From Planctomycetota bacterium (GTDB lineage Bacteria > Planctomycetota > SZUA-567 > H5-PLA8), in the NCBI GenBank assembly GCA_026692735.1, contig JAPLOD010000717.1:2794-54291 (forward strand): a DNA stretch of 51,498 bases, given 5' to 3'. Under the pieces are notes generated by a model that made no database searches, was not told the DNA's origin, and was given only the letters and a program-made list of their open reading frames with translations. This document shows positions 11,506 to 39,029 of the stretch, piece by piece. The first letter of the stretch is position 1. Each line of letters starts with the position of its first letter. A program made the position numbers and the translations under genes.

Positions 11506-11517
11506 CTCGAGAACTCC

Positions 11518-11656: not shown

Positions 11657-14600
11657 ATGACCGCGACGCGTTTCCGCACAACGTTGTGCCAGGCCGCTGT
11701 GCTCGTCCTCGCCATAAGGGCATGCGCCCAGGAGGCCGGAACCGTGGGCCAGCGGCCGTATGAACTGGAATGGGCCAACCGCACGCAGGATGACCACCCG
11801 CCGCTCGTTGACTTTGAGGACCTCACCGGCTGGCGCGTCGAATGCAAGGACGCCGAAGCGAAGTTCGAGCGCACCCGCGAACAGCAGATCTGGGGGACGT
11901 TCGTCGGCAAGCTGACCTATCGCGCCGCCGGAAAGGAACCGTCCGTCCGCGTCGCGCCGCCCGCGCCCGTCAAGATCGAGAAACCCTTCGATGCCGTGAC
12001 CTGCTGGATCTACGGCAACAACTGGGGCTGGACCACCGACCCGGAAACGCCCCAGGTGGCCGTGACCGCCCTCTTTGCCGACGCCGCCGGCCAGGAGTTC
12101 ACCGTCCCGCTCGCCCACGTGAACTGGACGGAGTGGTTTCTCTGCCACCGCCGCCTGCAGCCGGACCAGATCAAGCGCGTGGCAGGAGGCGCAGCGTTCA
12201 AGGGCTTCGTGATCGCCAACGGCCGCAACACCAAGGACCGCGCGCTCTACTTCGACAACCTCGCTGTCTTCCTCGAAGAGTTCAAGCCGCTCACGTTCCA
12301 GCCGCGCCCCGAACGCGGCATTCCGATGCTCCCCGGCCAGGGAGTTGGCACGAACACGGGACCGGGCAAGCTTCCTTTTCCGACGCGGCCCGAAACCATC
12401 CTCCCCGACAACCTGACCGAAAAGTTCAAGACCGCCGTCGCCGCCGACGGTGCCGCCTTCGTCTTCAGGTACGATGGCGAGGACGGCAGGCTCAGCTATC
12501 GCCTCGAACCGAAGACCGGCACGCTTTCCGACCTGAGCGCGCAGTGGGAAGGGCGCGGCGGCGTGGTCCGCCCGTGCGTGGGCGGTGGAGTCTGCCTGCA
12601 GACGCCCCGCGGGCCGGTGCCGCCCGAGACTGCCGAGCACCTCGGCACGGCGCAAAAGGGCGACGCCGTCGAATCCCGCTGGCGGCTGAAGGCCGGCGAC
12701 GTGAGTGCCGAGGCGACGTACACCTATCGCCTCTGGAAGAAATCGCTCGTCGTGGATGTCGTCGCGCTCGGCGGCAACGTCGCCGAAGTGCGCTACGGCC
12801 GTGCCCTTGGCCTGGAAAACCCCCGGCTCGTCACCTTGCCGTTCTACCTCTATGGCAGCACGCGCCCGGCCATCGCCGTCTCAGGTCCGCCGGACAGGCC
12901 GCTCTTCCTGGCGGGCCACACCGACTGGTGCCTCACCAATTCGTCCGAACCGTGGGCGGCCAATCTGATCGGCGCCGATGGCGTGGCGTTCAACGGCGGC
13001 ACGCGCTACATCCCCAAGACCGACGGCAAGCGCAACGACTGCTTCGAGCGGCTCTTCATCACGCTCTCGCCGCGCTTCGAAGAAGTCCTGCCCACCATCC
13101 CGAACCCCGTCTCGCCGTGGAAGCACATCACCGGCACGCGCGTCTGGCGCGCGCATGGCGCCAGCCCGAACCGTGCGCATGACGTGAGCTTCTGGACCGA
13201 ATGCCACCGCTACGGCATGACCCAGGTGATCGTCACCGACCATGAGACCATGTGGCGCGACGGCGGCGAGAGCTTCACTTTCCGCACGCGCGCCGCGCCG
13301 AAAAAAGGCGGCGACGAAGGAGAACGCGAGTACTCCCGGTTCATGCAGGACAAGCTCGGCTTCGTCTACGGCCCGTACAACAACTTCACCGACTTCGCGC
13401 CCGTCAACGAGTATTGGACGCCGGACCTCATCAGCCGTGCGCCGGACAACCAGCTCCAGCAGGCCTGGATGCGCTGCTACGCGCCCAAGCCCGCGCGCGC
13501 GGTGGAATTCTGCGCGCTGCTCGCGCCGAAGATCCAGGAGAAGTTCAAGTTCAGCACCGCGTACTGCGACGTGCACACGGCGGTCGCGCCGTGGCACCGC
13601 ACCGACTACGACGCGCGCGTGCCGGGCGCCGGAACGTGCGCGGCGGTCTTCTATTCCTTCGGCGAAATCATGCTGCACCAGAAAGCGGCGTGGAACGGCC
13701 CGGTGTACTCCGAAGGCAACAACCACTTTCCCTATTGCGGCCTGACTGACGGCAACTATGGACAGGACCAGAACTACCGGCCCGCGGTGCAGCCGTGGCT
13801 GGTGGACTTCGATCTGCGCAAGCTGCACGACCTGTGCTGCAACTTCGGCATGGGCAACCCGGAGATGTTCTTCGCGGGCCAGAAGACCCACGAGCCGCTC
13901 GACCGCTTCTTCGCGGCGACGGTCGCCTTCGGCCACCCGGGGTTCCTGACCTACGAAGGCGGCCTGCCCACGGCGCTGCGCAGTTACTTCCTGCTGCAGC
14001 CGCTGCATGCGCGCTACGCTCTGTCGAGCGCGAAAGAGATCCGCTACGTGGACGCGGACGGCAAGTTGCTCGACACCACGGCGGCGGTCGCGACGGGTGT
14101 GTACGCGCGCTCGCAGGTTGTCACGCGCTACGCCGACGGCACCATTACCGCGGCCAACGGACATCCGCAGGAGCGGCTTGTCGTTGAGGCCTACGGCCGC
14201 AAGCTGGACCTGCCGCCGAACGGCTATGCCGGCTGGACTGAGGACGGCGCGGTGAATGTCTTCAGCGGCGATGTGGGCGGACACCGTTGCGACTATGCCG
14301 TGGCGCCGGCGCAGCTCTTCGTTGACGGCCGCGGCCGATTCGTGCGCTTCGAGAAAGCCGCGGGCAACGGCATCGGCATCTACCGCCTTTCCCCCGGCGG
14401 CTGCGAAATTACCCCGTTCCAGGGCGCGGAGTGCGGCTTTGCCATTCGAGAGGGCACTGCCGTGGCGCTGGACAAAGAAGGCAAAGTGATCGGCCCGGCG
14501 AAGCTGCGCGTGTCGCGCGGACTGACGTATGTTGAGCCTGTTGCGAACGCATTCAGCTACAGACTCAGTGACGAAACGATAGCGGCGGTCGTGGAGCTGA

Positions 14601-16021
14601 CGTGCGCGCGTGACGAGGTTGTGCCGGGCGAGACAGTCATCGTTCGTGGCAAAGAGGAACACACGCTGCAGGTTCCGGCGGATGCGAAACCGGGCGCGCG
14701 GCTGTGGCGCGAGTTCGAAGGCGGCTGGATTGACTTCACGGTTATGCCTCTGGCCGACGCCGCGTGGGCGCTTGACGGCAACTCGCTGCGGCTGACGCTG
14801 GCCAGCCACCTCGCCAGGGCCGGGGACTTCGTGCTGCTGCTGGCCGGGCAGGAGCAGACGCTGCGCCTCGAACCCGGCAAGCCCTCCGCGGCGGCGTTCG
14901 ATCTTGGCGCGCCGGCTGCCGAGAACGAGGAAGTGCTGGCCCTGACGCTGCGTGCCGGCGGGCCGCAGGTGCGCCTTGAGCGCGGTCTGAAGACGGAACT
15001 CGGCACGCGCCGCCTCGCGGCCTTGCCGGAGAAATGGCGCGCGGGCATGCGCTTGCGCAAGCAGGACGAACGTTTCGACTTTGGCGAGACGCGCGCCAGC
15101 GTGGACCCGCGCGCTTCCGCCTGCGGCGGCGTGGAACGCAGCGGCATCTTCATGCATCCGCCGTGGATGGGCGGCACGGGATACTCGTTCGCGCTCTACG
15201 ATGCGGTGTCGTTGCCTGCTCAACCGGCGGCCGCGTTCCGCGCGCTAGTCGGGAAGGGCGACGGCAGCGACCTCGGCGACGGCATCCTCTACAAGGTCGC
15301 CGTGGTGGACGCGAACGGCACGGAGACGATGGTGGCCGAACAAACGGTGGCGAGACACGAGTGGCTGCCGATTGAGGCCGACCTCACGCCGTGGGCGGGA
15401 AAGCCGGTGCAGCTCAAGCTGCTCACGGATGTGGGGCCGAAAGACGATTCCAGCGGCGATTGGGGCTGCTGGGCCGAGATGCGCATCGAGAGCCGGCAGC
15501 CCGGCTTGTTCAGAACGCTCGACGAGAACGTGGAGGCGTATCGCCGCGAGGCTGCTCCGTTCCCGGTGGCCGGCGTCACTGTCGAGCAGCTCAGGAGCGC
15601 CAGGCGCGGCTGGCTGCGCTACGACGGCATGGGCCTCGAAGGCGGTGTCGGAGACTATGCCTCGTTCGCCGTGCTGAACGGCGTCGAGCTTGGCGGGATG
15701 GCTGGGGCGGGCGGCGACGCGGTGAAGGGCGTATGGGCGGAAAAGGTCGGCGTGCCGCTCACCCCCGTTGCCCTCAAGACGCTGGGTTTCTTCAACCGCT
15801 TCGCGCTGCGCAATCCGAAGCAGGACTGCTTCAAGGTGCGGCGGTTCTGGATCGAGCTCGAACTGGCCGATGGCCGGAAGTGCTCGTCGCTGATTACGCC
15901 CGCGGTCTTCACTCAGCCGCCCGGCTGGAAATATGCGGAAGGGATCAAGGTGCCGCCCGGTGAGGATATCCGTGTCGGCATCTCGTTCCGTTCTTCAGCA
16001 GCAACAGATGATCGTAGATAG
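11657..16021 (+). CDS. Large secreted putative glycoside hydrolase (1454 aa) with an NPCBM/NEW2-like module
   Basis: GGGGGGAG RBS; signal peptide ending ACA-Q; central barrel-like region with AYCDVH and YSEG; late GIFMHPPW...FRALVGKGDGSDLGDG resembles NPCBM. The ORF-track start at 11129 overlaps the GH2 gene and was rejected. Confidence 0.8.
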   Translation: MTATRFRTTLCQAAVLVLAIRACAQEAGTVGQRPYELEWANRTQDDHPPLVDFEDLTGWRVECKDAEAKFERTREQQIWGTFVGKLTYRAAGKEPSVRVAPPAPVKIEKPFDAVTCWIYGNNWGWTTDPETPQVAVTALFADAAGQEFTVPLAHVNWTEWFLCHRRLQPDQIKRVAGGAAFKGFVIANGRNTKDRALYFDNLAVFLEEFKPLTFQPRPERGIPMLPGQGVGTNTGPGKLPFPTRPETILPDNLTEKFKTAVAADGAAFVFRYDGEDGRLSYRLEPKTGTLSDLSAQWEGRGGVVRPCVGGGVCLQTPRGPVPPETAEHLGTAQKGDAVESRWRLKAGDVSAEATYTYRLWKKSLVVDVVALGGNVAEVRYGRALGLENPRLVTLPFYLYGSTRPAIAVSGPPDRPLFLAGHTDWCLTNSSEPWAANLIGADGVAFNGGTRYIPKTDGKRNDCFERLFITLSPRFEEVLPTIPNPVSPWKHITGTRVWRAHGASPNRAHDVSFWTECHRYGMTQVIVTDHETMWRDGGESFTFRTRAAPKKGGDEGEREYSRFMQDKLGFVYGPYNNFTDFAPVNEYWTPDLISRAPDNQLQQAWMRCYAPKPARAVEFCALLAPKIQEKFKFSTAYCDVHTAVAPWHRTDYDARVPGAGTCAAVFYSFGEIMLHQKAAWNGPVYSEGNNHFPYCGLTDGNYGQDQNYRPAVQPWLVDFDLRKLHDLCCNFGMGNPEMFFAGQKTHEPLDRFFAATVAFGHPGFLTYEGGLPTALRSYFLLQPLHARYALSSAKEIRYVDADGKLLDTTAAVATGVYARSQVVTRYADGTITAANGHPQERLVVEAYGRKLDLPPNGYAGWTEDGAVNVFSGDVGGHRCDYAVAPAQLFVDGRGRFVRFEKAAGNGIGIYRLSPGGCEITPFQGAECGFAIREGTAVALDKEGKVIGPAKLRVSRGLTYVEPVANAFSYRLSDETIAAVVELTCARDEVVPGETVIVRGKEEHTLQVPADAKPGARLWREFEGGWIDFTVMPLADAAWALDGNSLRLTLASHLARAGDFVLLLAGQEQTLRLEPGKPSAAAFDLGAPAAENEEVLALTLRAGGPQVRLERGLKTELGTRRLAALPEKWRAGMRLRKQDERFDFGETRASVDPRASACGGVERSGIFMHPPWMGGTGYSFALYDAVSLPAQPAAAFRALVGKGDGSDLGDGILYKVAVVDANGTETMVAEQTVARHEWLPIEADLTPWAGKPVQLKLLTDVGPKDDSSGDWGCWAEMRIESRQPGLFRTLDENVEAYRREAAPFPVAGVTVEQLRSARRGWLRYDGMGLEGGVGDYASFAVLNGVELGGMAGAGGDAVKGVWAEKVGVPLTPVALKTLGFFNRFALRNPKQDCFKVRRFWIELELADGRKCSSLITPAVFTQPPGWKYAEGIKVPPGEDIRVGISFRSSAATDDRR

Positions 16022-27220: not shown

Positions 27221-27248
27221 TTGACGGGGGGAAAAAAAAACATACAGT
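27221..27248 (+). promoter_or_regulatory. Putative sigma70 promoter with a G6A9 homopolymer in the -35/-10 spacer
   Basis: TTGACG (27221-27226), GGGGG AAAAAAAAA CA (16 nt), TACAGT (27243-27248), upstream of the secretin pair. Confidence 0.65.
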
Positions 27249-27491
27249 CAGTGGTTGCTAGCCTTTGACCTGACGTACTACCGGAGCCCGCATCCGGGTG
27301 GGCTCCGTGCAATGCGGTGTTACGCCGTTCGCAACAGGCGCCTGCGTCTTGGTGTCTGTGTTCAGAGGGGTGGGGGCAAGACACGTTCGACGTGTTGTGT
27401 ATCGTTTGGCAGTACCGCCCACGGGGCGGTGTGTGCCCGGCGCGATGCCGGCATGACAACCGGGCTCGAACAGAAAGGACGGCCGCGGCCG

Positions 27492-30443
27492 ATGACCAGA
27501 CTCCGTACACTCGCGCAGGTAGCCTTGGCGGCGTTGCTCTTCGCCGGGCTGACGGGCTGTGCCAACAGACCAGGCGACTTGGGGGCTGCGCGCGAAGAAG
27601 AAGCGCCAGTCGTGAAGACCGCTCCAAAGGATGGCGGACCTGCGGCCGAAGTTGTGGACGTGGACAAGCCGGCCGCCAAGGAAGCGGTCGCGCAGACCGT
27701 CCCGCCGGCCGACAGCAAAGAAGCCCCTGCTGAGCTGGTTTCGCTGCAGCCCGCGCCCCTGGTCGAAGTCACGCCCGCTACGGCCGCCAGGCCCGGAGAA
27801 CTCGCCGCCGGTGAGACCAAGGCCGACGAGACCAAGCCCAAGGAGGGCGAAACGCCGCCCCCGGGCGAGACACCGCAGCAGCGCGCCGCCCGCCTCCTCA
27901 AAGACGCCGAACGCCTCGCGGGCGTCAAAGTCCAGGAGACGATGCAGGAATCGGAGGCCGCCTACCAGGCCGGACTGAAGCTCTTCACCGACCTCGAATA
28001 CGAGCAGGCCCGCAGGTATTTTGAGAAGGCCGTGCTCTTGAACGCGGCCAACGATGCTGCGCAACAGAAGCTGCGCACCTGTAACGCCCTGCTGGGCGTG
28101 CACATCAACATCATGCGCGAGAAGATCAAGGAGCTCGAGGAGGCCGAGCGCGTCAAGGCGCAGGAAACCATGGCCGAGATGGCCCGCGCGCTTGAAGAGG
28201 CCCGCATTCTCGAGGAACGCGGCACCGGCGCGGCGCTCGAACCCGACGTGGCGGACAAGGAACGCGTGCTGGCCGAACAGATGGACGCCCTCCGCCGGGC
28301 CCAGGACCGCTATCGCCGGGTGCGGGCCATCATCAACTGGCTGCCGCCCAGCATTGAGCTACCCGCCCTCCGCACCCAGGTTGACACCGCCCTCGGCCGC
28401 ATCCGCCAGAAGCTGACCGACAAGGACGACGAGATGAGCTTCCTCAGAAGGCAGGAAGCCGCCAAGCTCGCCGCCGACGCGCGTGAACGCGAGACCGACC
28501 AGTTCAAGCAGCGCGTGAAGAAGCTGTTGGAGCAGGTCAAGGACTTGTGCGACCGCCTCGACTACAGGGGGGCGGAGCGGCTGGCCATTCGCGTCCTGCA
28601 GATGGACCCCCTCAACACCGAAGCCGAGGGTTGGAAGAGCAAGGCCCGCTCGGCCTACCACGCGAACGAGGACGCGGCGATCGGCGACCTCAAGACCGAG
28701 GAATACAAGAAGAGCTGGGAGGCCGTGGACGAGGCCGCGATCAGCTATGCGCGCGATATCCAGTATCCCGCCAACTGGGACCAGATCACCGCCCGCCGCA
28801 CTGAGGCTACCGCGATCGGCAGGCAGGTGAAGGAAGAGGCCTGGAAGGCCGACATCAAGAAGAAGCTGCAGCGCAAAGTCACGTTCGAGTTCGTGGACAC
28901 GCCCCTCGATGAGGCCATCAGCTTCCTCCGCCAGTTGGCCAACGTGACGATGATTGTGGACCCCAAGGTCCTTGCCGGCGGCGCCCCCACGATCAACCTG
29001 CGCGTCACCGACATGGGCCTCGACCTGGCCCTCGAATGGATCCTGAAGCTCGCCGATCTCGAGTACGCGTTGCGCGACAATGCCATCTTCATAAGCAAAC
29101 CGGCCAACCTGACCGAATCTGTCGAGCTGCGCATCTACGACGTCAGCGACCTTACCCAGAATATCCAGGACTTCCCCGGCCCCGATATCCAGGTCGCCGT
29201 CGTGGGCGATGCTACCGGCGGCGGCGGCGGCGGCGGCGCGGGCGGCGCGGGTGGCGCGGGCGGCTTCCAGCCGGTGCCCAAGGTCGCGCCGACGCTGACC
29301 AACATCGCCGACATGATCCGCAACCGCGTGCGCCCCGAAAGCTGGGACGCGGCGCTCGGCACCTCGATTGAGGAGCGCGCCGGCCGCCTCGTCGTGATGC
29401 AGCGGCCCGAAGTCCACGCCCTGATTGATCAGTTGCTCTCCAATTTCCGCGCCACGCAGAAGATGATGGTCAATATCGAGGCGCGCTTCCTGACCATTCG
29501 CGAAGCGTATCTCGAAGACATTGGCGTGGAGTTCCAGGGACTCGACCCCAACGTCCTCTACGGCGACTTCGGCGATATCCGCCGCCTTGGCGCGCCCACC
29601 GGGCTGGTGCAGCCGCGCGTCCCCGCCGGCAGCGATGCCACCCCGCCCAATGCGCCCTTCCCCGGCATTGTCAACCCCTATAACCGCACGCTGGGCGGCA
29701 CGATCTCCGAGGTGGGGTCCATCGTCAACCACGCAGTCAACTTCTTCCCCAACGACCCCGATACCATCTCCGGCAACGACACGGCCAACACGGTCCGGCA
29801 GGGCGGCCTTTCCGCCCAGATGACCATCCTCAATAACGCCCAGGTCCAGGCGTTCGTCCGCGCGCTGGCGGTGCGCGAGAACACCAGCACCCTCGTCGCC
29901 CCGCGCCTGACCGTCTTCAACACGCAGCGCGCCCACATGTTCGTGGCCCGCCAGCAGTCCTACGTGTCGGACTACGAAATCTCCGGCGACAGTTATGACC
30001 CGGTGATCCGCCAGTTCCTCGTCGGCGTCGTCCTGGATGTGAAGCCGATCGTCTCCAGCGACCGCCGCTACGTCACGCTTGAAATGCGCCCGACCGTCAC
30101 CGAACTCGTCAACTTCCAGACCCGCCAGATCAACACCTATTCCGTCAACAGCGGCGCCAACGTCAACGTCTTCGTGCAGTTGGCCTTCCCGATCCAGTTC
30201 CCGGAACTCTCGATCCGCCGCGTCCGCACGACGGCGACCGTCCCGGACGGCGGCATCCTGATGCTCGGCGGCCTCTACCGCAACGTGCAGTTCCACTCCG
30301 AGAACGGCGTGCCGTTCCTCAGCGACTTGCCTGTGGTCGGACGGCTGTTCCGCTGGAATACAGTGGATAATGCCAAGAGCAACCTGGCGATCCTGGTCAG
30401 CCCGCGCATCATCCTCTTTAGTGAGGAAGAAGAAAAGCTGTAG
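27492..30443 (+). CDS. Secretin (GspD/PilQ superfamily) 1: lipoprotein with TPR/coiled-coil N-terminus, STN- and N3-like domains
   Basis: Lipobox LTGC; TPR-like helices; VTFEFVDTPLDEAISFL (STN); LRIYDVSDL...LVVMQRPEVH.LI.QLL (N3); secretin motifs VNIEARFL, APRLTVFN.QRA, GVVLDVKP.VS.DRRY, TTATVPDGG, VPFLSDLPVVGRLFR, LAILVSPRII. Alternative start at 27453. Confidence 0.93.
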   Translation: MTRLRTLAQVALAALLFAGLTGCANRPGDLGAAREEEAPVVKTAPKDGGPAAEVVDVDKPAAKEAVAQTVPPADSKEAPAELVSLQPAPLVEVTPATAARPGELAAGETKADETKPKEGETPPPGETPQQRAARLLKDAERLAGVKVQETMQESEAAYQAGLKLFTDLEYEQARRYFEKAVLLNAANDAAQQKLRTCNALLGVHINIMREKIKELEEAERVKAQETMAEMARALEEARILEERGTGAALEPDVADKERVLAEQMDALRRAQDRYRRVRAIINWLPPSIELPALRTQVDTALGRIRQKLTDKDDEMSFLRRQEAAKLAADARERETDQFKQRVKKLLEQVKDLCDRLDYRGAERLAIRVLQMDPLNTEAEGWKSKARSAYHANEDAAIGDLKTEEYKKSWEAVDEAAISYARDIQYPANWDQITARRTEATAIGRQVKEEAWKADIKKKLQRKVTFEFVDTPLDEAISFLRQLANVTMIVDPKVLAGGAPTINLRVTDMGLDLALEWILKLADLEYALRDNAIFISKPANLTESVELRIYDVSDLTQNIQDFPGPDIQVAVVGDATGGGGGGGAGGAGGAGGFQPVPKVAPTLTNIADMIRNRVRPESWDAALGTSIEERAGRLVVMQRPEVHALIDQLLSNFRATQKMMVNIEARFLTIREAYLEDIGVEFQGLDPNVLYGDFGDIRRLGAPTGLVQPRVPAGSDATPPNAPFPGIVNPYNRTLGGTISEVGSIVNHAVNFFPNDPDTISGNDTANTVRQGGLSAQMTILNNAQVQAFVRALAVRENTSTLVAPRLTVFNTQRAHMFVARQQSYVSDYEISGDSYDPVIRQFLVGVVLDVKPIVSSDRRYVTLEMRPTVTELVNFQTRQINTYSVNSGANVNVFVQLAFPIQFPELSIRRVRTTATVPDGGILMLGGLYRNVQFHSENGVPFLSDLPVVGRLFRWNTVDNAKSNLAILVSPRIILFSEEEEKL

Positions 30444-30499
30444 CCCGATGAAGAGGTGGCAACACTCGGCGTTGTACTGGCAGAAGCTTCAGTGAGGGA

Positions 30500-33313
30500 A
30501 TGTCAATGAATGCTGGCTTCAAACAGTGGGTCTGCTGCAGCGTACTGAGTGCCGCGCTGGCGCTCGGCATCTCGAACAGGGGCCCCGTCCATGCGGGTGA
30601 AGCCCCGCCTCCGCCGCCCCCGCCGCCGCCCCCGGCTGCCAATGCCGAGGCGCAGCGTCTGCTGGAAAAGCAGGCTGAGGACGACAAGAAGCTCCGTGAG
30701 GAGATTGCGGCCCAGGCCGCCGCCAAGCTCGACGCGGCCAAGCGCCTGTATGCGGCCTTCAACTATGAGGACGCCCGGCAGGAAGCCGAAGCGGCCGTCC
30801 GTCTCGATCCCACCCACGAGGAAGCCCGTAAGCTGCTCCTGCGCATCAACGATATCCTCAACGTCCGCCGCGACCGCATCCGCGCCGCCGTGGCACAGTT
30901 GCACGGCGAGTACAAGGTCTCGGTTCAGGAGAAGCTCGTCGAACTCGACAACCGCGTTGACCTCGCCAAGCGCGCCATCGAGGATGCCAAGACCGCCCCC
31001 GATCTGTCCCTCGCCGACCGCATCCGGCGCGACGAGGAGGCGCTGGCCACGCTCGAGCGCGCCAAGGAACTGCTCAAATGGCTGCCGGTGGAGGCCAACG
31101 TCGAGGAGCAGACCAACGAGGTCAACCGCCTTGTGTCCGAGACGCAGAAGGCCGTCAAGTTCGCCCAGGCGCGCCTCCAGGAAGTTGACCGCGAGGAAGC
31201 CGCGCGCCTCGCCGGCGAACAGCGCGCCAACCAGAAGCGTTTCCTCGAAAAGAAGATCAACACGCTCGTGGACCAGGGCAAGGCGCTCTTCGAGACCGGC
31301 AAGTACGATGCCGCGCTGGATTTGGCCAACAAGATCCTGGAGATGGACCCGACCAACGCCGAGGCCCACACCATCATCGCCACCGCCCGCGACCGCTACC
31401 ACGCCGAAAAACGCAAGTGGATTGACATTGAGTATAAGGAACAGTTCACACTCAACCGCGAGCGCGCCGAGCGGTTCAACGTCCCCCACAGCGACTACCT
31501 GGTCTACCCGGACAACTGGCACGAGATCGCCCAGCGCTCCGGCGAGCAGGTCAAGACCAAGACGGAAGAGCCCTGGAAACAGGACATCCGCAAAAAGCTC
31601 GCCCGCCACGTTTCCTTCGAGTTCGTAGACACCCCGCTCGAAGAGGCCATCAACTTCCTCAACTCCCTGACCAAGGTCAATATCATCCTCGACCCCAAGG
31701 TCGCCGCCGAGGGCGCCAACAAGACCCCCATCACGCTCCGCGTCCAGGACATGGAGATGGAGCTGGCGCTCAAGTGGATCCTCAAGCTCGCCGAGCTGGA
31801 ATACGACCTGCGCAACCAGGCGGTCTTCATCACCAAGAAAGCCAACCTCGCGGCCAACGTCGAGCTCCAGATCTACGACATCCGCGACCTCACCACCACC
31901 GTCGCCGATTTCCCCGGCCCGCGCATTGACCTCGGTACCGCCGGCGCCCAGGGCGTCGTGGACCCGTTCGCGCAGGCGGCCGTGCAGCCTACGCTGGCCC
32001 CCGCCGACCTCGCCACCCTCATTAAGGACAAGCTGCTCCCGGCCGAGTTCGCCGATCCCGCCACCTCCATCGAGGAATCGGGCGGCAAGCTCGTCGTCAT
32101 GCAGCGCCCCGAGATCCACGAGCGCATCAACCAACTGCTGCGCAGCTTCCGCGAAACCCAGACCGTCCAGGTCCTGACCCAGGTCCGCTTCGTGGACGTC
32201 ACCGATGGCTTCCTCGAAACCATCGGCATCCATTTCACCGGCCTGGATGCCGCCCCCAGCGACAGCGGCTTGCCCAATGCCAGAGTGAACCCGCTGCAGC
32301 AGCCCTCCCCCCAGGGCCTCTTCCCGGCCGGCGGCGGTCCCGGCCTCACCCCGCCGTTGCCCTCGGACATCCAGGCCTCGCCGGCCTATCAGTTCAGCCA
32401 GTTCAACCCTAACCCGCCGTACTATTACGACTACGGGTTCCCGTCCAGCCGGCCGGGGCCCGCCCCGATAACTCTCCTGCGCCCGCGCCTGGACCCGAAC
32501 TTCCCCACGCGCGGCAACGCGACGGTCGGCCCCGCCCTGGCGCCCGCCGGCTTCCGCCGCCAGTGGTATGAGAAGGCGTTCGGCTCACCGACGCTCATCC
32601 AGGGCCAGACCTTGAACCTCCTGCGCATCAATCCCCTCGCCTCGGCCATGGGCGAGTCCATCACGAGCGCCCCGCAGCAGGGCGCGTTGTTCCAGTTCCG
32701 GTTCCTGCAGAGCGTGCAGGCCAACGCCATCCTGCAGGCGGTGCGCAAGGACCAGACGGCCGACACGCTCCTGGCCCCCAAGCTCATGCAGTTCAACAAT
32801 CAGCGCGCCCACATCCTCGCCGCCCAGCAGCGCTCGTACATCCGCGACTACGACGTCTCCGGCGCGGTCTATGACCCCGTGCTGAGCGCCTTCCTGATCG
32901 GCGTCGTCCTCGAGGCCAAGCCCACCGTCTCGAACGACAAGCGCTACATTACTCTCGATATCCGCGCCGGCACCGCCGTCGAGATCACCCCGCCGCAGAT
33001 CGTCTACATCACCAACGCGGGCGGCGACGTCAACGTCGGCGGCGGCGCCATCAACCTGCCCATCGAGCTGCCCAACCTGGAGTTGCGCTCGATCAATACG
33101 ACCATCACCCTGCCCGACAACGGCACCATCCTCTACTCCGGCCTGATCAGCGACCGGAAGATTGACGCCAAGTCGGGCGTGCCGTTCTTCTCCGACCTGC
33201 CCATCATCGGCCGCTTCTTCTCGACGAATAACAAAGAGCGCGTGCGCCGCAACCTGCTGGTGCTCGTCACCGCGCGCGTGGTGCTCTTCGACGAGGAGGA
33301 GGCCAGGCTGTAG
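30500..33313 (+). CDS. Secretin (GspD/PilQ superfamily) 2 with TPR/coiled-coil N-terminus
   Basis: Sec signal ending VHA; poly-Pro; TPR helices; VSFEFVDTPLEEAINFL; LQIYDIRDL; APKLMQFNNQRA; GVVLEAKP.VSNDKRY; TTITLPDNG; VPFFSDLPIIGRFFS; LLVLVTARVV. Confidence 0.93.
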   Translation: MSMNAGFKQWVCCSVLSAALALGISNRGPVHAGEAPPPPPPPPPPAANAEAQRLLEKQAEDDKKLREEIAAQAAAKLDAAKRLYAAFNYEDARQEAEAAVRLDPTHEEARKLLLRINDILNVRRDRIRAAVAQLHGEYKVSVQEKLVELDNRVDLAKRAIEDAKTAPDLSLADRIRRDEEALATLERAKELLKWLPVEANVEEQTNEVNRLVSETQKAVKFAQARLQEVDREEAARLAGEQRANQKRFLEKKINTLVDQGKALFETGKYDAALDLANKILEMDPTNAEAHTIIATARDRYHAEKRKWIDIEYKEQFTLNRERAERFNVPHSDYLVYPDNWHEIAQRSGEQVKTKTEEPWKQDIRKKLARHVSFEFVDTPLEEAINFLNSLTKVNIILDPKVAAEGANKTPITLRVQDMEMELALKWILKLAELEYDLRNQAVFITKKANLAANVELQIYDIRDLTTTVADFPGPRIDLGTAGAQGVVDPFAQAAVQPTLAPADLATLIKDKLLPAEFADPATSIEESGGKLVVMQRPEIHERINQLLRSFRETQTVQVLTQVRFVDVTDGFLETIGIHFTGLDAAPSDSGLPNARVNPLQQPSPQGLFPAGGGPGLTPPLPSDIQASPAYQFSQFNPNPPYYYDYGFPSSRPGPAPITLLRPRLDPNFPTRGNATVGPALAPAGFRRQWYEKAFGSPTLIQGQTLNLLRINPLASAMGESITSAPQQGALFQFRFLQSVQANAILQAVRKDQTADTLLAPKLMQFNNQRAHILAAQQRSYIRDYDVSGAVYDPVLSAFLIGVVLEAKPTVSNDKRYITLDIRAGTAVEITPPQIVYITNAGGDVNVGGGAINLPIELPNLELRSINTTITLPDNGTILYSGLISDRKIDAKSGVPFFSDLPIIGRFFSTNNKERVRRNLLVLVTARVVLFDEEEARL

Positions 33314-33336
33314 CGCCCTCCCCATGCGGACTCACG

Positions 33337-33367
33337 GCCCGGGGCTTTCCCTGCCCCGGGCTTTTTT
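33337..33367 (+). terminator. Rho-independent terminator after the secretin pair
   Basis: GCCCGGGGC-TTTCCCT-GCCCCGGGC followed by TTTTTT. Confidence 0.9.
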
Positions 33368-33395
33368 GTGCCCCAGGCCTTCCCGCCGGAGCAGG

Positions 33396-33608
33396 CCACG
33401 GGCGGGACGCCCGTGGTACCACGAACGTCTCGTTCGTGGCATAGGCATCGTCCACGGGCGGGACGCCCGTGGTACCACGAACGTCTCGTTCGTGGCATGG
33501 GAATCGTCCACGGGCGGGACGCCCGTGGTACCACGAACGTCTCGTTCGTGGCATGGGCATCGTCCACGGGCGGGACGCCCGTGGTACCACGAACGTCTCG
33601 TTCGTGGC
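33396..33608. repeat. Tandem array of ~3.8 x 56-bp double-hairpin (REP/BIME-like) units
   Basis: Units start at 33396, 33452, 33508 and 33564. Unit: CCACGGGCG-GGA-CGCCCGTGG TA CCACGAACG-TCT-CGTTCGTGG C + ATRGGMATCGT. Confidence 0.95.
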
Positions 33609-33806
33609 GCGGCACGCGGCCTTTTTCCCGGATTATTCGCGGAATCGCTTTTTGCGCATGAGGAAGTGCTTATAATCGCGGCGTGGGATCATGGTGGAAA
33701 AATCGTGCAAGGTCTGAGCACGTCATTCGTTAAGATACGGGGTAGTGTGTGCAGGTGTCGAAAGGGGCAGTGCGACAGATTGCCCTACAGTGGAGGATCG
33801 CTCCAG

Positions 33807-36800
33807 ATGATCGTCACAGGTCACAGGTCGTTCGTCTTCCCTTATGCCTCGCTCGTCATCGGGTTGGTGCTGGCCGCCTGCGTGGCGTCGTCGGCCCGCG
33901 CCGAGCTGGACTATGAGTTCGCCAAGATGCTCATGGACCGCGACGAGCCCAGTTTCGAAACTGACGACCTGGTCGAGCGCATGGCCGCACAGCTCGAGGC
34001 GCAGCCCGCCACCAAGATGGACGCCAGGCTCATCCGCGCCACGCTCTTCTGCAAGCAGGCCGTCAGGGCCGGCGTGGAGAAGCGCAAGGCCCTGCTCGAT
34101 GAAGCCGAGAAGCTGTACCGGGAAATCCTGGCCGGCGACAAGAACTACCGGCTCTACGCCACCGCCGAGAAGGAAGCGGGCACGATCAACTCCAGGCGCG
34201 CCACCACCATGATGAAGGCCGCCATGGACCTCGAAAAGACCAACCCCGGCGAAGCCAAGCGCATGCGGGCTGAGGCCGTCGCCACGATGGGCAAGATCGC
34301 CGACGGTCACAAGGCCGAGGCCGACCAGTTGATAGCCAAGTTCAAGGCCGTGTACGACAAGTACAAGAAATGGGGCGACGAGGTCAACAAGAAGGGAGAG
34401 CTGCCGGTTCCCCCCGACATGCAGAAGCAGCTCCTGGGCACCTTCAACCCCTGGCTGTTCGCCGACAAGCGCTACATCGCCACGAAGATCGAGCAGATCG
34501 AATGCCGCGACGACAGCGATCCGGCCAAGAAGAAGGAAGGCGAGGAGCTCGCCAAGCTGTGTGAGACACGCACGAACCAGGATGACATCATGGAGTTCCC
34601 CACCATCGTCGCCTGGTACAACTATATGCGCGGCCGCGCCTTCGCCGCCACCCAGAACGAGGCTGATGCCGCCAAGGCCTGGAAGGACGCGCTGGACGTC
34701 CGCGATGAGGATATGGCGCCCGAGCAGAAGAAGACGGTCCTCGCTCTCAAAAAGCTCATCCTCCACGACCTCGTCAAGATGAAGATGCACGCCAAGAAGT
34801 ACGGCGACGTGGAGCAGGTCATTGTCGAGGCCAAAGTGGACCCCGCGCTGCGCACCCTCTTCGACGAGGACGCGGGCAAAGAACTGATGGTTGACTACGC
34901 CAAGGCGCTGACGCTCCCGCCCGATGCCGGATCGGCCGAGTACGAGAAAGCCATCAAGGAGCTGCGCGTCCAGATCCAGAAGGAGACCAAGGGCGGCGCG
35001 GTGACGCGCTGGGCCAACGACTTCTCGCGCACCATCGCCGAAATGCTCGAGGACGCGCGGACCAATAAGCCCGCGGCGCGGCCCAAGCTCTCCGCCGCGG
35101 AATGGTACTAGGCGGCGCACGGCTTCTTCCTCATGGGCCAGCAGGAGTACCAGAAGTTCACCGACCTTGAGAAGGACAAGTCTCCCAAGGCCAAGGAACA
35201 GTTCGAGAAAGCCTACGACGAGTACCAGGACGCCGTGGACTACTACCGGCGCGCCATCGCCGAGGCGCGGAGCGACCGGACGGACCTGCCGACGCGCGTC
35301 GAGGTGGAGTCCAAGTCCTGGTTCGAGATGGGCCTCGCCTACCTCAAGATGCGGCACTACTACGAATCCATCATCACCTACCAGGCGATGCGCGGCGCGT
35401 TCCTGCCCGAGAACCGGAAGAAGTGGCTGGGCGACCTCACTGTCCCGACAAAGGTCAAGCCCGTTGTGGCCAAACAGGTGGAGGCTCTCCTTGCCGACCT
35501 CGACAAACCCAAGGAGGGCCTGCTCTACAAGAGCGGCCAGAACATCGCCTTCGCCCTCGACAGGAACCAGGAAACGCACCGCAACCCCAAGGACCTCTGG
35601 AACCAGAGGCTCAAGTCCACGATCAGGGGCTCGGACCCAGGCACCGTTGCCGACGGCGAGGTCACCGACAACGACTACCTCGCCGCCAAGGCCGACATGG
35701 AAGAGGCCAAGCAGCTCTCCGCCGCCGGCACGGAGGCGCTGAAAGAGGACCCGAAGCTGGCCGAAGAGAGCTACACCTCGGCGGCGAAGAAATACGCCAG
35801 CGCAGGCGACAAGTTCCTCAAGGTGAAGCCTTCTTCGCCGGCTTACGAGATTGCGCTCTATCAGTCCGGCACGTCGTTCACCATGGCCCAGGCGCTCTGG
35901 GTCACCGGCAAGGCGCGCGCCAAGCCGCCGGCGGACACCGCGGCGCAGTGCAAGGAGCTCGGCCTGAAAGCCCTGGCTGCCTTCGACAAGTACGACGACT
36001 TCATCGCCAAGGCCCCCGTCACCAAGGACGAGGACAAGAAGCGCCGCCAGGGCCTGGCGGGCATGGTCCTGCTGGCCCGCAACGCCCTCTACAGCGGCGC
36101 CGAGGAATGGCGGAATGTCGTCAAGTCCTCGGACCAGTACCTCAACTGGGAAGAGCAGGTCCCTCAGGAGAAATCGTCCGCCGACGTCGCGTACCTCAAT
36201 AAGTTCCGCGCCCTGATCGAGCTGGGAGCGACCAACCTGGCGCCCGACTGCGATGAGGACCTGATCCAGGCCGAGAAAACGATGCGGCAATGGCGCAAGC
36301 TCCGCGAGAAGGACAACAAGGTCTTCGTCTTCATGCTCAATGCCGTCTCGCGCCGCTACAACCTCGCCGCGTTCCAGGTCGAGGACTTCATGAAGAAGGG
36401 CAAGAAAGAAGCCAAGACCAAGGACGGTAAGACGGTCGAGCTCACCACGGACATGGTCGAGGTCTACGAGAGGAAGGTGGCTGAACTGCAGCGTGAGCGC
36501 GTCAAGATGGTCGAGGAGGCCGAAGGCGAGGCGCCGCCGACCCTCGAAGACTACAGCCGCCTCGTCTACCTCTTCACCAAGACACGCATGGACCGCGAGG
36601 CCGCCGACACCGCCAGAAAACTCCTGGAGAGGTTCGACTCCGACAATAAGAGCTGCATCATCCCGCCCGACGATGAGAAGACCTGGCAGGCCATGCTGAC
36701 CAAGATGCAGGCCATCATCCGCTACAACGACCTCAATAAATGGGACCGCTGCAAGAAGGACCATATGACCCTCGTGGACTACATGTACGACACCCGCCAG

Positions 36801-37562
36801 GGACTGGCTCAGGAAAAGCAGGAGCAGCGGCCGGAGTTCGACAGGTTCAACGCGGACATGGATAACGCCCGCAAGCAGCTCGAGAGCATCCGCAAGAACT
36901 ACCCCGATTGCCAGACCTGGGACCCCAAGCTCGGCGAAGGCGGCAAGTCGTACCTTGGCCGCATCGAGGAAGAGATTGATTTCCGGCGCAAGATTGAGGC
37001 CACCCGCGACCTCCTCTTCAACAAGGCCCTCCTCGTCGCCAAGAAGCTCGACGAGGACAAGCAGCCGGAGGAGGCAAAGAGATACCGCGAGGTCGCCAAC
37101 GCGCAGCTCGAGGTCCTGCGCAAGATCCGCATGGACACGCCGGACATGCAGATCAAGCAGGCGACCATCTCGATCTCTATCGGCGAGTACGCTAAGGCGC
37201 TGGAGACTCTGAACAACGTGAAGCTCGACGCGCCCGAGGACTCCCCCCTCTTCTTCGATGCCTCGCGCATGCAGTCGGAGACCTACGCCCTGCAGAAGAA
37301 GTGGAAGGAGGCGGCCGAGTATCCGGAGTTCACGGCGCTGGTGGCGGGCTTCGATGCTCCGCTCGTCAAGAACCGCTGGCCGGAGATGAAGGAGTTCCTC
37401 AGAGAGTGCTATGCCAGCGGCGCGCCCTGCCCCGAGGCGCTGAAGAAGCTGCTGAAACCCAAGGAGGACGGCGCCAAGACTGAGGAACCCAAGAAGGAGG
37501 AAGGCAAGACCGAACCACCGAAGAAAGAAGAGCCCAAGGCCGATGAGAAGAAGAACCCGTAG
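33807..37562 (+). pseudogene. Large exported TPR/alpha-solenoid protein (~1250 aa) interrupted by one in-frame TAG at 35109-35111
   Basis: GGAGGA RBS, signal peptide ending SARA-E. Track ORFs 33162..35111 and 35133..37562 are in the same frame and read AAEWY*AAHGFFLMGQQEY, with no RBS before ATG 35133. Confidence 0.8.
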
Positions 37563-37648
37563 TTGATACGCGCGTTGGCCGATTGCCCTCGGGCTTCTGC
37601 CGGGGCGGGCCGCGCGCTGGCATGCCGTTCAGTGCAGGGAGAGACAAC

Positions 37649-38971
37649 ATGATTGCGAACCGGATCATCACCGTGGTGCTGTGCCTCGCCGCGACGTCGG
37701 CGACCGCGGCCAACGTCCAGAACCAGGATGAGGAGCTGGACATCATCGTCCGCGCCGACAAGATCCCGGTGCCGCCCACGATCATCAGCCAGGACAATTA
37801 CCTCCAGGTGATCGGCAAGAAGGCCGGCGAGGTGAAGGTGCCGTCGTACGCGGTCAAGGAGGTCATCTACGCCAACCGCGATGCGAACTACAGCGCCGCC
37901 CTCGAGAAGCGCGATGAAGGCCGCTACAGGCTGGCCGCGCTCTATTTCCGGAAGGCACTGGAGAACATGAGCGCCCAGAAATGGGCCGCGGAGTACTGCA
38001 ACTACGGCATCGGCGACGCCCTGTACCAGAGCGGCGACTTCAAGGGCTACAAGGGCAAGTCGGGGACCGAGTACGCGCCGCCGTCCCAGTACTTCCAGAA
38101 GGTGCTGGCCGCTAACCCCAAGTCCCGCTTCCTGCCCGATATCCTGGTGAAGCTGCCGGTGTGCCTGGCCGAGGAAGACAAGCTCGACGAGGCGGAGGCG
38201 AAACTCAAAGAGGCCGAAACGCGCATCAAGGCCTACCGCGATGAGACGATCAAGGTCCACACGGGCTTCGGCGAGATCGCCGACCGCGCCACCGCCCAAC
38301 TGGCCATCGCCGACGCGCGCCTGGCGAAGCGTAAGGCGAAGGACGGCAAGGCAAAATGGGACGAAGTCCGCGACAAGTGGAGCGCCGCCCGCTCCAAGTG
38401 CCTCAAGTTCCCCGAACCCCTCGCGGAGGCCGTGGACGGCGTCCTCGAAGCACTCTTGATGATGAAGGACTACAACGGCGCCCAGGCCGAGGCGGAGAGC
38501 GTCATCAGCAGGTACAAGACGGAAGGCGACACCAAGCTGCTGCCGATGCTCCCGGGCGCGTATACCGCGCTCGGCAAGGCCCATCTCGCCCAGGCCGTCG
38601 AGTTCAAGGGCCGCGGCGCGCAGATCCCCTCACGCACCAAGTTTTCTGAAGCGCGCTGGGCCTTCCTGCATGTGGTGGGGCAGTTCTTCGACAACGATGA
38701 GTATGTCGCTGGGGCGCACTACTTCGCCGGAATCTGCTGCGATGATCTTCGCGAGGTGGAGAGCGATGCCGGGGAACGGGCCATACGGCACTGGAAGCTG
38801 ATCGTCAGAAACTTCCCCAAGAGCGATTATCGGGCGCCTGCCGAGAAGGAACTGGCTCGCGTCGGCACGGCCGCCCCGGCGGCCCAACCGCAGCCGCCAG
38901 CGGAGGCTAAAGCCGAACCCAAGGCCGAACCCAAGCCTGAACCCAAGCCCGCCCCCAAGGCAAAGAAGTAA
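37649..38971 (+). CDS. Exported TPR protein with C-terminal (P/A)K(A/P)E repeats
   Basis: GGGAGAG RBS; signal peptide MIANRIITVVLCLAATSATAA; TPR-like YGIGDALYQSGDF, NPKSRF, AYTALGKAHL, AHYFAG, FPKSDY. Confidence 0.88.
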   Translation: MIANRIITVVLCLAATSATAANVQNQDEELDIIVRADKIPVPPTIISQDNYLQVIGKKAGEVKVPSYAVKEVIYANRDANYSAALEKRDEGRYRLAALYFRKALENMSAQKWAAEYCNYGIGDALYQSGDFKGYKGKSGTEYAPPSQYFQKVLAANPKSRFLPDILVKLPVCLAEEDKLDEAEAKLKEAETRIKAYRDETIKVHTGFGEIADRATAQLAIADARLAKRKAKDGKAKWDEVRDKWSAARSKCLKFPEPLAEAVDGVLEALLMMKDYNGAQAEAESVISRYKTEGDTKLLPMLPGAYTALGKAHLAQAVEFKGRGAQIPSRTKFSEARWAFLHVVGQFFDNDEYVAGAHYFAGICCDDLREVESDAGERAIRHWKLIVRNFPKSDYRAPAEKELARVGTAAPAAQPQPPAEAKAEPKAEPKPEPKPAPKAKK

Positions 38972-39005: not shown

Positions 39006-39029
39006 CCCCTCTCCCGACCGGGAGAGGGG
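39006..39029. repeat. CCCCTCTCCC...GGGAGAGGGG REP-like hairpin between convergent genes
   Basis: CCCCTCTCCCG-AC-CGGGAGAGGGG. Confidence 0.8.

Follow-up and report, generated by a model that had tools for sequence, protein, structure and literature searches.

Paralogous TPR-secretins and linked TPR proteins of Planctomycetota: a candidate PVC-type secretin machine

Gene organisation of the locus

We analysed a stretch of 51,498 nucleotides from the genome of a Planctomycetota bacterium, in the following called the window, in which two co-oriented secretin genes on the + strand, SecA (27492-30443; 983 aa counted from the Met preceding the lipobox, the longest ORF beginning at 27255) and SecB (30500-33313; 937 aa), lie 56 nt apart according to the ORF reading. 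This gap contains no terminator, suggesting that both genes are co-transcribed. Position 27221, the start coordinate in the original prediction, is not a gene start but belongs to a sigma-70 promoter-like hexamer pair upstream of SecA (27221..27248, + strand; 9/12 matches), being weak evidence for a promoter as two such pairs occur in the region and 1.2 are expected from shuffles. Directly 3' of the SecB stop codon we found a terminator-like hairpin with a T run behind its 10-pair stem, in which nine pairs are G-C (33336..33362, + strand), and further downstream a tandem array in which a 56-bp unit built from two palindromes is repeated 3.8 times (33396..33608, no strand assigned). This unit is a genome-dispersed REP-like element and no part of the machine, the window's own genome containing 110 blastn-short matches to it on 84 contigs. 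The array is followed by the gene for a large exported TPR-type solenoid (33807-37562, + strand), which has a length of 1,251 codons and starts with a signal peptide, and the gene for a 440-aa exported TPR protein (37649-38971, + strand). A second terminator-like hairpin (39006..39029, + strand) 3' of the latter marks the end of the cluster, beyond which a convergent beta-ketoacyl synthase gene is located; the genes flanking the cluster encode a histidine phosphatase and this ketoacyl synthase. SecA and SecB appear to be organised in one transcription unit, the large solenoid and the small CpoB/BamD-like TPR protein in a second one. As originally predicted, the 30 window ORFs scanned contain no domain indicative of a secretion ATPase, a platform protein, a prepilin peptidase or a T3SS, and a profile search for T2SSE and T2SSF yielded no match on the window's contig.

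The two large exported TPR proteins expected downstream of the secretins were found, with ~1,251 and 440 aa, the larger one being split by a TAG. Separate tblastn matches had given it as two genes, a reading we rejected on the basis of the junctions in relatives and of another assembly. The ORFs 33807-35111 and 35133-37562 are one gene divided by the in-frame TAG at 35109-35111: a continuous ORF runs over the corresponding junction in G009 and G007, and position 35109 is a G, resulting in GAG (Glu), in a near-identical contig (run X1) and in the contig of a relative (run X4). As the other assembly has GAG, the TAG in the large TPR gene is probably an assembly error. The solenoid is homologous to sister-family proteins of 1,255-1,308 aa (hhalign probability 99.95%, E 1e-38), while homology to the positionally equivalent ~1,000-aa TPR proteins of G222, G063 and G126 was undetectable by hhalign (probability 7%). 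The 440-aa protein is composed of CpoB/YbgF-like TPRs (residues 78-189), BamD-like TPRs (346-404) and a Lys/Pro/Ala/Glu-rich tail, scoring 43.4 bits with TIGR02795 and 30.3 bits with TIGR03302, both under the cut-offs. A CpoB/YbgF match, again under the family cut-offs, was obtained for all seven proteins scanned, i.e. the 440-aa protein and its equivalents by gene position. A link to Akkermansia MUL1, indicated by a Mul1B_fam match (E 0.0024) in one of these equivalents, was discarded as the match was absent in six further proteins.

SecA and SecB among the secretins

SecA and SecB are paralogues with 34% identity over 911 aa (BLASTP, E 2e-151) sharing, as originally claimed, one architecture of TPR/helical region, YPxNW motif, STN/N0-like domain, N-domain, secretin domain and acidic C-terminal tail, one being equipped with a lipobox and the other with a Sec signal. 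In SecA, the lipobox LTGC with Cys22 precedes a Pro/Glu/Ala/Lys-rich linker reaching until approximately residue 140, followed by the TPR/helical region, the YPANW motif (425-429), the STN/N0-like domain (494-536), the N-domain, the secretin domain (792-974) and a tail ending in LFSEEEEKL. SecB starts with a hydrophobic N-terminus without lipobox Cys, judged by eye to be a Sec signal, and contains a TPR_2 motif (256-286), YPDNW, the STN/N0-like domain, the N-domain, a Pro-rich insert, the secretin domain (748-928) and a tail ending in LFDEEEARL. Pfam Secretin (PF00263) is matched over these secretin domains with 100.9 bits by SecA and 91 bits by SecB, above the cut-off of 27.5, and TPR_2 in SecB exceeds its Pfam cut-off as well (28.5 bits, cut-off 27). 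The STN match in SecA (20.2 bits) is under the Pfam cut-off of 28.4, and neither Pfam Secretin_N nor AMIN domains were detected in the two proteins. Family alignments show the secretin domain being fully conserved including its C-terminal part. The Y, P and W of the YPxNW motif are invariant in 12/12 aligned family members and the W in 78/78, and in the tail two Glu are invariant in 10/10 aligned sequences; across 78 sequences, one Glu is conserved in at least 90%. Searching with a profile of 78 family members returned PilQ (6w6m) as top solved match with 113 bits (profile positions 525-855), in addition to the 128-residue PilQ fragment 4ar0 covering the STN region and consensus TPR proteins (profile positions 84-129).

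The curated secretin models are matched by SecA and SecB at scores far from their cut-offs. We obtained 89.6 and 87.1 bits, respectively, for GspD (TIGR02517; cut-off 351.35), for which the C-terminal part alone was matched, 92.9 and 94 bits for PilQ (TIGR02515; cut-off 284.35), 109.8 and 90.6 bits for MshL (TIGR02519; cut-off 250.2) and 56.2 and 45.3 bits for the T3SS protein SctC (TIGR02516; cut-off 238.45). The Amuc_1098 family (NF042912; cut-off 750) gave 103.9 and 89 bits, the best stretch covering model positions 664-796 of 805 and hence the C-terminal domain only, and both proteins score on it no better than on the MshL, PilQ or GspD models. The Amuc_1098-type architecture, in which an N-terminal TPR region is fused to a secretin in a protein of ~800-1,000 aa, is present in SecA and SecB. 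Neither of them occupies the PilQ-type position at the end of a pilMNOP operon; the canonical pilMNOPQ of this genome is encoded on contig C238 and a GspD-like gene on contig C220. SecA shares merely 25% identity over 138 aa with the canonical PilQ and 23% over 205 aa with the GspD-like protein of its own genome. A quick LG+G4 tree search including 32 TPR-secretins and the genome's own PilQ and GspD-like proteins grouped all 32 together and apart from the latter (SH-aLRT 99), in support of the original prediction. In the ESM-Atlas, Secretin+TPR proteins from Planctomycetota and Verrucomicrobiota make up the nearest clusters.

Long TPR extensions on secretins are not new. The earlier statement that characterised secretins lack them is contradicted by the closest described relative, Amuc_1098 ('PilQ') of Akkermansia muciniphila, which is described as a 907-aa secretin with a three-TPR N-terminal domain (TPRs 71-239, secretin 650-876; PMC4960237), the TPR part being interpreted there by Ottman et al. 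as pilotin-like. Citing papers report that the Akkermansia MUL2 genes are required for mucin transport/use but not for viability (PMC13174399, PMC12418764); the macromolecule uptake proposed originally for the window's genes is an analogy drawn from these reports.

Distribution, partner genes and comparison with known systems

The secretin pair is no orphan oddity but widespread in Planctomycetota. Of the 301 Planctomycetota genomes sampled, 168 matched a 561-aa N-terminal query at E<=1e-30, frequently with two matches, as did 86/190 high-quality genomes; two copies were present in 5/5 near-complete genomes checked, and the family profile retrieved 3,020 representatives at E<=1e-30. Among related genomes, 30/31 contain a TPR-secretin match, including 16/16 of the window's own family, in which SecA and SecB are adjacent in 15 genomes (coordinates counted by hand), the 16th being fragmentary. 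The order SecA, SecB, large TPR, small TPR was seen in each of the three own-family genomes examined, and conservation of the tandem pair and of its linkage to TPR genes, on which the original prediction depends, extends over the window's family and sister families. The genes standing first in the pairs form one clade over three families (SH-aLRT 100, 7 rows), and a lipobox-like Cys is found at the N-terminus of 6/7 of these but of 0/7 second genes. Outside the window's class the quick tree clusters the paralogues by lineage, so that duplication may have occurred repeatedly instead of going back to one ancient A/B split. One full-length copy is present in G031 and G070, whereas G185 and G247 have three (three being the number in family f18), and two paralogues are thus no fixed requirement of the family. 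The related-locus search returned uncultured-MAG records alone and no cultured organism with a close homologue, the cluster members are throughout named 'hypothetical protein' of MAGs, and our literature searches found no publication on the Planctomycetota system. The four genes are, as had been proposed, part of a conserved and largely uncharacterised envelope system.

Sister families revealed further components. In these, a single array encodes a fusion of a PilM domain with a TM helix (PilM-fusion), two bitopic proteins (u1 and u2), the secretin(s), the large TPR protein, the CpoB/BamD-like TPR protein and, after the TPR genes, one TolQ/ExbB-like and two ExbD/TolR-like proteins. Examining the neighbourhoods in 12 non-family genomes, we found PilM-fusion, u1 and u2 directly upstream of a secretin in 7 and ExbB/ExbD genes in the same array in 6, and a u2-profile match lies within 10 kb of a TPR-secretin match in 15/23 non-family genomes. 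The idea that partner genes are missing is not supported, an Amuc_1101-like PilM-fusion operon being the probable partner. Other families have it next to the secretin, whereas linkage is lost in the window's family: there, the PilM-type operon is 0.5-1.45 Mb distant from the secretin pair with no ExbBD gene adjacent, and in the window's own genome it is found on contigs C322 and C669, with u2 at C669:7018-8688. The PilM-fusions have a GspL-like layout of actin-like domain, TM helix and periplasmic domain with weak T2SSL/GspL matches, and score 95-250 bits on the Amuc_1101 family (NF045709) compared to 79-157 bits on generic PilM, the former being the best family for 4/4 scanned though under its cut-off of 650. 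For u1, 3/10 orthologues match Amuc_1100_fam and no other kind of family (best E 2.9e-7, 30 bits, cut-off 180), while 0/10 u2 orthologues match any family; neither profile has meaningful solved relatives, u2 giving no solved-structure match. TolQ is the best-scoring model for the linked ExbB (78.5 bits) and TolR for the ExbD proteins, all scores being under the cut-offs. ExbB-ExbD-ExbD clusters accompanied by giant TPR proteins occur at least three times in the window's genome (C36, C620, C675), so that no stator is assignable to the secretin locus. Pilin, ATPase or platform genes were not linked in any neighbourhood examined, TolA/TonB, TolB and Pal were not seen in the arrays, and next to the PilM-fusion we noticed no pilin gene of Amuc_1102 type. 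A conserved lipoprotein gene divergent beside the PilM-fusion in the own family has no NCBIfam match. As phylum-wide markers we rejected both the u2 profile, being too divergent with matches in 30/301 genomes, and NF045709, matching 286/301 genomes at E<=1e-25, to which canonical PilM may contribute.

These features resemble the Akkermansia Amuc_1098-1102 genes (MUL2; NF042912, NF038287, NF045709), likewise from the PVC superphylum, in the long secretin with N-terminal TPR part, in the order of PilM-type gene, two small membrane proteins and secretin seen in relatives of the window's locus, in Amuc_1101 being the best family of the PilM-fusion and in u1 being weakly Amuc_1100-like. In contrast to MUL2, the Planctomycetota proteins do not reach any curated family cut-off, there are two secretin genes here and three in family f18 where the available text on Akkermansia names one, the Planctomycetota link a giant TPR solenoid, a CpoB-like TPR protein and TolQR-like genes to them, and the window's genome scatters the parts over several loci. 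With PilQ/PilMNOP of type IVa pili they share the best solved relative, the N0/STN-like domain and a PilM-domain partner, but have as partner a PilM-TM fusion with genes for two long bitopic proteins behind it, no pilin or ATPase gene being linked and the canonical pilMNOPQ being separate. Compared to type II secretion (GspD/GspL/GspM/GspC), the secretin domain and the GspL-like layout of the PilM-fusion are similar, whereas TIGR02517 scores of 87-90 vs 351 bits, the undetected Secretin_N and the separate GspD-like gene are different. The TolQ/ExbB-like and two ExbD/TolR-like genes of sister lineages and the CpoB/YbgF-like TPRs of the 440-aa protein recall Tol-Pal and ExbB-ExbD/TonB; unlike Tol-Pal, the set of TolQ-TolR-TolA-TolB-Pal-CpoB is not assembled, the TolQ/TolR-like genes being present in relatives and none in the window. 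The N-terminal lipid anchor and long linker of SecA are also features of the lipoprotein secretins of type IVb pili, BfpB and TcpC, which are not known to need a pilotin; these are not known to have a TPR region or a paralogous partner and differ in their other partner genes, the sequence comparison being a PDB search only. The Agl-Glt gliding complex of Myxococcus (AglRQS stator, GltA-K) may be comparable in its large TPR proteins and TolQR-like stator.

A model for the machine and its alternatives

Our data favour, with a probability of about 60%, a model according to which the region encodes the outer-membrane/periplasmic module of a PVC-type secretin machine, being the Planctomycetota counterpart of the 'pili-like' Amuc_1098-1101 system of Akkermansia. 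The secretins would form a gated pore in the outer membrane. Their extended helical/TPR N-termini would, jointly with the TPR proteins, span the wide periplasm to an inner-membrane platform, and the TolQR-like stator may provide proton-motive energy. The machine may carry large molecules over the outer membrane, the cargo possibly being a fibre or a large polymer.

Whether both secretins act together is the point at which a second reading has to be weighed, i.e. two separate homo-oligomeric channels differing in cargo, timing or location, the pair reflecting duplication and divergence instead of co-assembly. We regard this as possible, though less probable. In its favour, the solved secretins found by sequence are all deposited as homo-oligomers of 12-15 identical chains per entry, the paralogues are merely 34% identical, single-copy and triple-copy lineages exist, and in G038 and G199 the two copies are ~3 Mb apart. 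Against separate channels argue the single strong PilM-fusion orthologue in each of the five own-family genomes searched, the two secretin genes bracketing one TPR-ExbBD block in several families (G222, G063), the lipidated/non-lipidated split being consistent over three families and the suggested co-transcription across the 56-nt gap. To us it appears somewhat more likely that lipidated SecA and SecB co-assemble in one pore or machine than that they constitute two unrelated channels.

Two further explanations concern the function as such. SecA and SecB scoring at 45-110 bits on GspD, PilQ, MshL and SctC models with cut-offs of 238-351 bits, the separation of their clade from both the PilQ and the GspD-like protein of this genome, the absence of linked ATPase, platform or pilin genes in the neighbourhoods examined and the conserved neighbourhood of Amuc_1101-like fusion, u1, u2, TPR proteins and TolQR-like genes make it improbable that they are ordinary T2SS/T4P secretins serving orphan GspE/GspF-type clusters with the TPR part being just a fused pilotin, even though the genome has 19 T2SSE and 21 T2SSF vs 4 secretin matches, PilQ is the top solved relative and the pilotin-like reading of the Amuc_1098 TPR part by Ottman et al. 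(PMC4960237) would fit. A Tol-Pal-like role in envelope integrity or cell division, in which FtsA/PilM-like protein, TolQR-like stator, CpoB-like TPR protein and outer-membrane anchor tether or constrict the outer membrane of an FtsZ-less phylum without any transport pore, appears very improbable. It would account for the preference of the linked ExbB for TolQ and of ExbD for TolR, for the CpoB/YbgF matches in all small TPR proteins scanned and for the PilM-fusion count near housekeeping frequency, a count that may include canonical PilM; however, the TolQ, TolR and CpoB scores are all far under the family cut-offs, TolA, TolB and Pal are unseen in the arrays, the fully conserved secretin domain fits a working pore, and citing papers describe the Akkermansia relatives as dispensable for viability but required for mucin use (PMC12418764, PMC13174399).

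Extending the favoured model of a PVC-type secretin machine, TPR-secretins, PilM-fusion, TPR solenoids and TolQR-like stator might together form a machine shared by PVC bacteria which is based on secretins, coupled to the PMF and used for import or capture. Such a machine would be the missing route for whole polysaccharides or glycoproteins into the enlarged periplasm without SusC/D in Planctomycetota and Verrucomicrobiota, might underlie crateriform structures and would have a pore of two paralogous secretins in lineages like this one. We put this forward as a speculation which is, as a whole, unlikely.

Secretins are the widest known gated pores of bacterial outer membranes. The TPR-secretin family is set apart by paralogous pairs or triplets kept in much of the phylum, by long TPR arms and by its linkage, seen in many lineages, to a proton motor of TolQR type instead of a secretion ATPase, pointing to a different way of building or powering such pores. 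According to a comparative-genomics paper, polysaccharide import by some Planctomycetota proceeds "via an unknown mechanism" (PMC11131199). Together with the role in mucin transport/use that citing papers describe for the Akkermansia relatives of the partner genes (PMC13174399, PMC12418764), this makes the gene set a concrete and testable candidate for such an uptake route.

Paralogous secretins and their exported TPR partners

Two adjacent secretin genes are located on the plus strand of the window, SecA at 27492-30443 (983 aa) and SecB at 30500-33313 (937 aa), sharing 34% identity across 911 aa (BLASTP, E 2e-151). Compared with proteins of its own genome, SecA is just 25% identical to the canonical PilQ (over 138 aa) and just 23% identical to the GspD-like protein (over 205 aa). 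Pfam detects the Secretin domain in both (SecA 100.9 bits, SecB 91 bits; cut-off 27.5) and a TPR_2 motif in SecB, the STN domain of SecA being sub-threshold (20.2 bits vs a cut-off of 28.4), and neither protein reaches any of the curated secretin family cut-offs. Comparison of a profile built from 78 family members with solved structures revealed similarity of positions 84-129 to consensus TPR proteins, of positions 372-453 to a PilQ fragment of 128 residues (4ar0), which we take to be the PilQ N0 region, and of positions 525-855 to Vibrio PilQ (6w6m). In the family alignments, complete or nearly complete conservation is seen for the YPxNW motif, for the acidic tail at the C-terminus and for many positions of the N0/STN region. 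The N-terminal lipobox of SecA, LTGC, precedes a linker of ~115 residues rich in Pro/Glu/Ala/Lys; the N-terminus of SecB is signal-like and has no lipobox Cys. Copies of the STN/N0-like module found in SecA at residues about 400-560 are also present, with 53-62% identity, in large non-secretin TPR proteins, several times per protein in those of the own genome (contigs C378, C323 and C499:11862-15716, the latter encoding the 1,284-aa protein P0041) and in 5-7 copies in the representatives P0054, P0077 and P0083.

Directly after SecB follows a strong terminator-like hairpin (33336-33362), and 3.8 copies of a 56-bp palindromic repeat (33396-33608) lie between this operon and the next. The repeat unit consists of two perfect palindromes and is a dispersed REP-like element, since its 110 matches are spread over 84 contigs of the own genome (blastn-short). 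The second transcription unit encodes a large TPR-type protein with a signal peptide (33807-37562) and a 440-aa TPR protein with CpoB/YbgF-like and BamD-like stretches (37649-38971), and closes with another terminator-like hairpin. ORFs, Pfam and BLASTP thereby confirm the original prediction of paired, co-oriented paralogous secretins with TPR-type genes downstream. The genes flanking the cluster are on the opposite strand and unrelated, and T2SSE and T2SSF gave no match on the window's contig. Elsewhere in the window, an ORF at 4889-5758 strongly matches the Druantia defence domain DruA (E 1.9e-103), and an ORF of 1,632 aa at 11123-16021 has coding-like composition and no Pfam match.

The large TPR gene is interrupted by a TAG at 35109-35111. 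The same junction lies within one uninterrupted ORF in the relatives G009 and G007; in the relative G014 the reading frame shifts a few codons before it (locus L042, about 4600-4700). A near-identical contig from the sequencing-run assembly X1, with one difference in 1,001 positions, has G at 35109 resulting in GAG (Glu), as does a relative's contig in X4, assembled from another study's run. As X1 and the window may share a sample, X1 counts as a second assembly and not as a second sample. The T at 35109 is probably a consensus error in the MAG, and we read the sequence as one intact gene of 1,251 codons; with the ORFs split by the TAG read as one gene, the predicted number of two exported TPR proteins is right.

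Conservation of the pair and distribution across Planctomycetota

SecA matches are present in 30 of 31 related genomes and in 16 of 16 within the window's own family, in which the secretin pair is adjacent in 15 genomes by hand count of coordinates, the 16th being fragmentary. The order SecA, SecB, large TPR, small TPR is held in all three own-family genomes examined further. Two sister families (f5, f6) retain the pair together with a TPR protein of 1,255-1,308 aa homologous to that of the window (hhalign probability 99.95%, E 1e-38). The unpublished genome G017, to be published only if its depositors agree, likewise has an adjacent pair; no other statement depends on it. Tree inference by a quick maximum-likelihood search over 34 rows splits every TPR-secretin from the PilQ and GspD-like proteins of the own genome (SH-aLRT 99) and places the first genes of the pairs from three families in a single clade (SH-aLRT 100), of which 6/7 have a lipobox-like Cys vs 0/7 second genes. 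Outside the window's class paralogues cluster by lineage with the deep forks of this tree unresolved, consistent with either repeated duplications or a single ancient duplication.

When 301 evenly sampled genomes of the Planctomycetota were searched with a 561-aa query comprising only the N-terminal half of SecA, 168 matched at E<=1e-30 (86/190 among high-quality genomes). At least two matches were counted by hand in 93 of the 168; scoring was limited to four candidates in each genome, and the matches include a few non-secretin proteins sharing the STN-like module. Exactly two copies were found in all five near-complete genomes checked (E<=1e-15); in family f18 the tandem genes number three, not two (L071/G185, L072/G247). 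In five complete genomes, drawn from families that lack a strong match to this query, the pattern differs: two have one full-length copy, two have a diverged form of 1,500-1,700 aa, and one has a shorter form of 740 aa whose similarity is confined to the later profile positions. The family profile identified 3,020 representatives among 1.84 billion proteins (E<=1e-30), and the close homologues bearing names are all from uncultured Planctomycetota, mostly as 'hypothetical protein'.

Inner-membrane partners and TolQR-like genes

Sister lineages reveal candidate partners. In G022, G024 and G021 the array reads PilM-fusion (630-670 aa), u1 (355-430 aa), u2 (457-596 aa), secretin, secretin, large TPR, small TPR, ExbB, ExbD, ExbD, u1 and u2 being bitopic inner-membrane proteins; G022 has a third ExbD, and ExbB is confirmed with Pfam in G021 and assigned by position in G022 and G024. 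In G222 the order is PilM-fusion, u1, u2, secretin, TPR, TPR, ExbB, ExbD, ExbD, secretin, and in G063 two lipoprotein secretins bracket TPR-TPR-ExbB-ExbD-ExbD and a sulfatase-like gene. Among twelve non-family genomes with neighbourhoods read, the PilM-fusion operon is directly upstream of a secretin in seven and ExbB/ExbD is within the array in six; u2-profile matches lie <=10 kb from a TPR-secretin match in 15/23 non-family genomes. The PilM-fusion has a GspL-like layout, comprising a PilM domain, a single TM helix around residues 360-385 and ~270 periplasmic residues. No secretion ATPase or pilin gene is linked in any neighbourhood read. A sulfatase/phosphodiesterase-like gene adjoins the second secretin in three families (L068:2670-4676, L063:13428-15389, L065:8941-10428). 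In G063 it is placed between ExbBD block and secretin, and its product also carries a TPR part; in G126 it directly precedes the secretin, and in G222 it directly follows it.

Within the window's family the PilM-fusion operon is unlinked to the secretins, 0.5 Mb off in G014 and 1.45 Mb in G007, and the window's own genome has it divided between an end of contig C322 and an end of contig C669. This genome also encodes a canonical pilMNOPQ (C238), a GspD-like gene (C220) and at least three ExbB-ExbD-ExbD clusters with giant TPR proteins (C36, C620, C675; L073, L075, L076), none assignable to the SecA/SecB locus. These giant TPR proteins reach 2,768 aa, one having a PA14 domain. C36 and C620 encode membrane proteins of 570-585 aa with a weak squalene-cyclase/prenyltransferase-like toroid match, none being seen on C675, and G002 has such a gene (L062:15648-17351) downstream of its PilM-fusion operon, at a distance of a few genes. 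A lipoprotein gene (about 390-400 aa, no family match), divergent from the adjoining PilM-fusion gene, is conserved in the window's family (C322:1932-3104; L061:16346-17548; L062:2456-3637). The f9 complete genomes (G122, G289; L121, L124) keep the PilM-fusion-u1-u2 operon with no adjoining secretin, and the diverged 1,500-1,700-aa protein, matching the TPR-secretin profile piecewise, is encoded away from it (G122:C1:1877687-1880338).

Proposed assembly and relation to Amuc_1098-type systems

The observed gene content, domain order, conservation and linkage are compatible with a model according to which the secretins would form a gated outer-membrane pore and contribute their TPR/helical arms to a periplasmic scaffold, together with the 1,251-aa solenoid and the CpoB/BamD-like protein; this scaffold would reach an inner-membrane platform of PilM-fusion, u1 and u2, and a TolQR-like stator may energise or gate the assembly. 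The conserved acidic tail, encoded next to TPR-protein genes, suggests a putative contact between secretin tail and TPR proteins. SecA and SecB may co-assemble, as judged from each genome having a single platform operon, from the conserved division into lipidated and non-lipidated secretins, and from arrays with one motor block between two secretins; however, one-copy and three-copy lineages, and copies being unlinked in some genomes, argue against this.

The best family of the PilM-fusions is NF045709 (Amuc_1101 of Akkermansia; 95-250 bits vs 79-157 for generic PilM). Three of ten u1 orthologues match the Amuc_1100 family, the sole other match being marginal (Amuc_1101_fam), and u2 orthologues have no family match. 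Array-linked ExbB scores best on TolQ, ExbD on TolR and the small TPR proteins on CpoB/YbgF, all sub-cut-off. In the ESM-Atlas, SecB falls closest to clusters of Secretin+TPR proteins from Planctomycetota and Verrucomicrobiota. Amuc_1098 'PilQ' (907 aa) is described as the most abundant outer-membrane protein, with three N-terminal TPRs, a C-terminal secretin domain and homologues in other Verrucomicrobia and Lentisphaera (Ottman et al. 2016, PMC4960237). The locus MUL2 is given as amuc_1099-1102 (ISME J 2026, PMC13174399), and MUL genes are stated to be required for mucin products to accumulate in internal compartments (review, PMC12418764). Our literature searches found no description of the Planctomycetota system.

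The original interpretation as an uncharacterised envelope machine with a paired or hetero-oligomeric channel is supported in part: the system is a variant within the known, barely studied PVC TPR-secretin/Amuc_1098-type systems, and co-assembly is a candidate reading. Novel in the Planctomycetota variant are the paralogous pairs, the giant TPR partners and the links to a TolQR-like motor.
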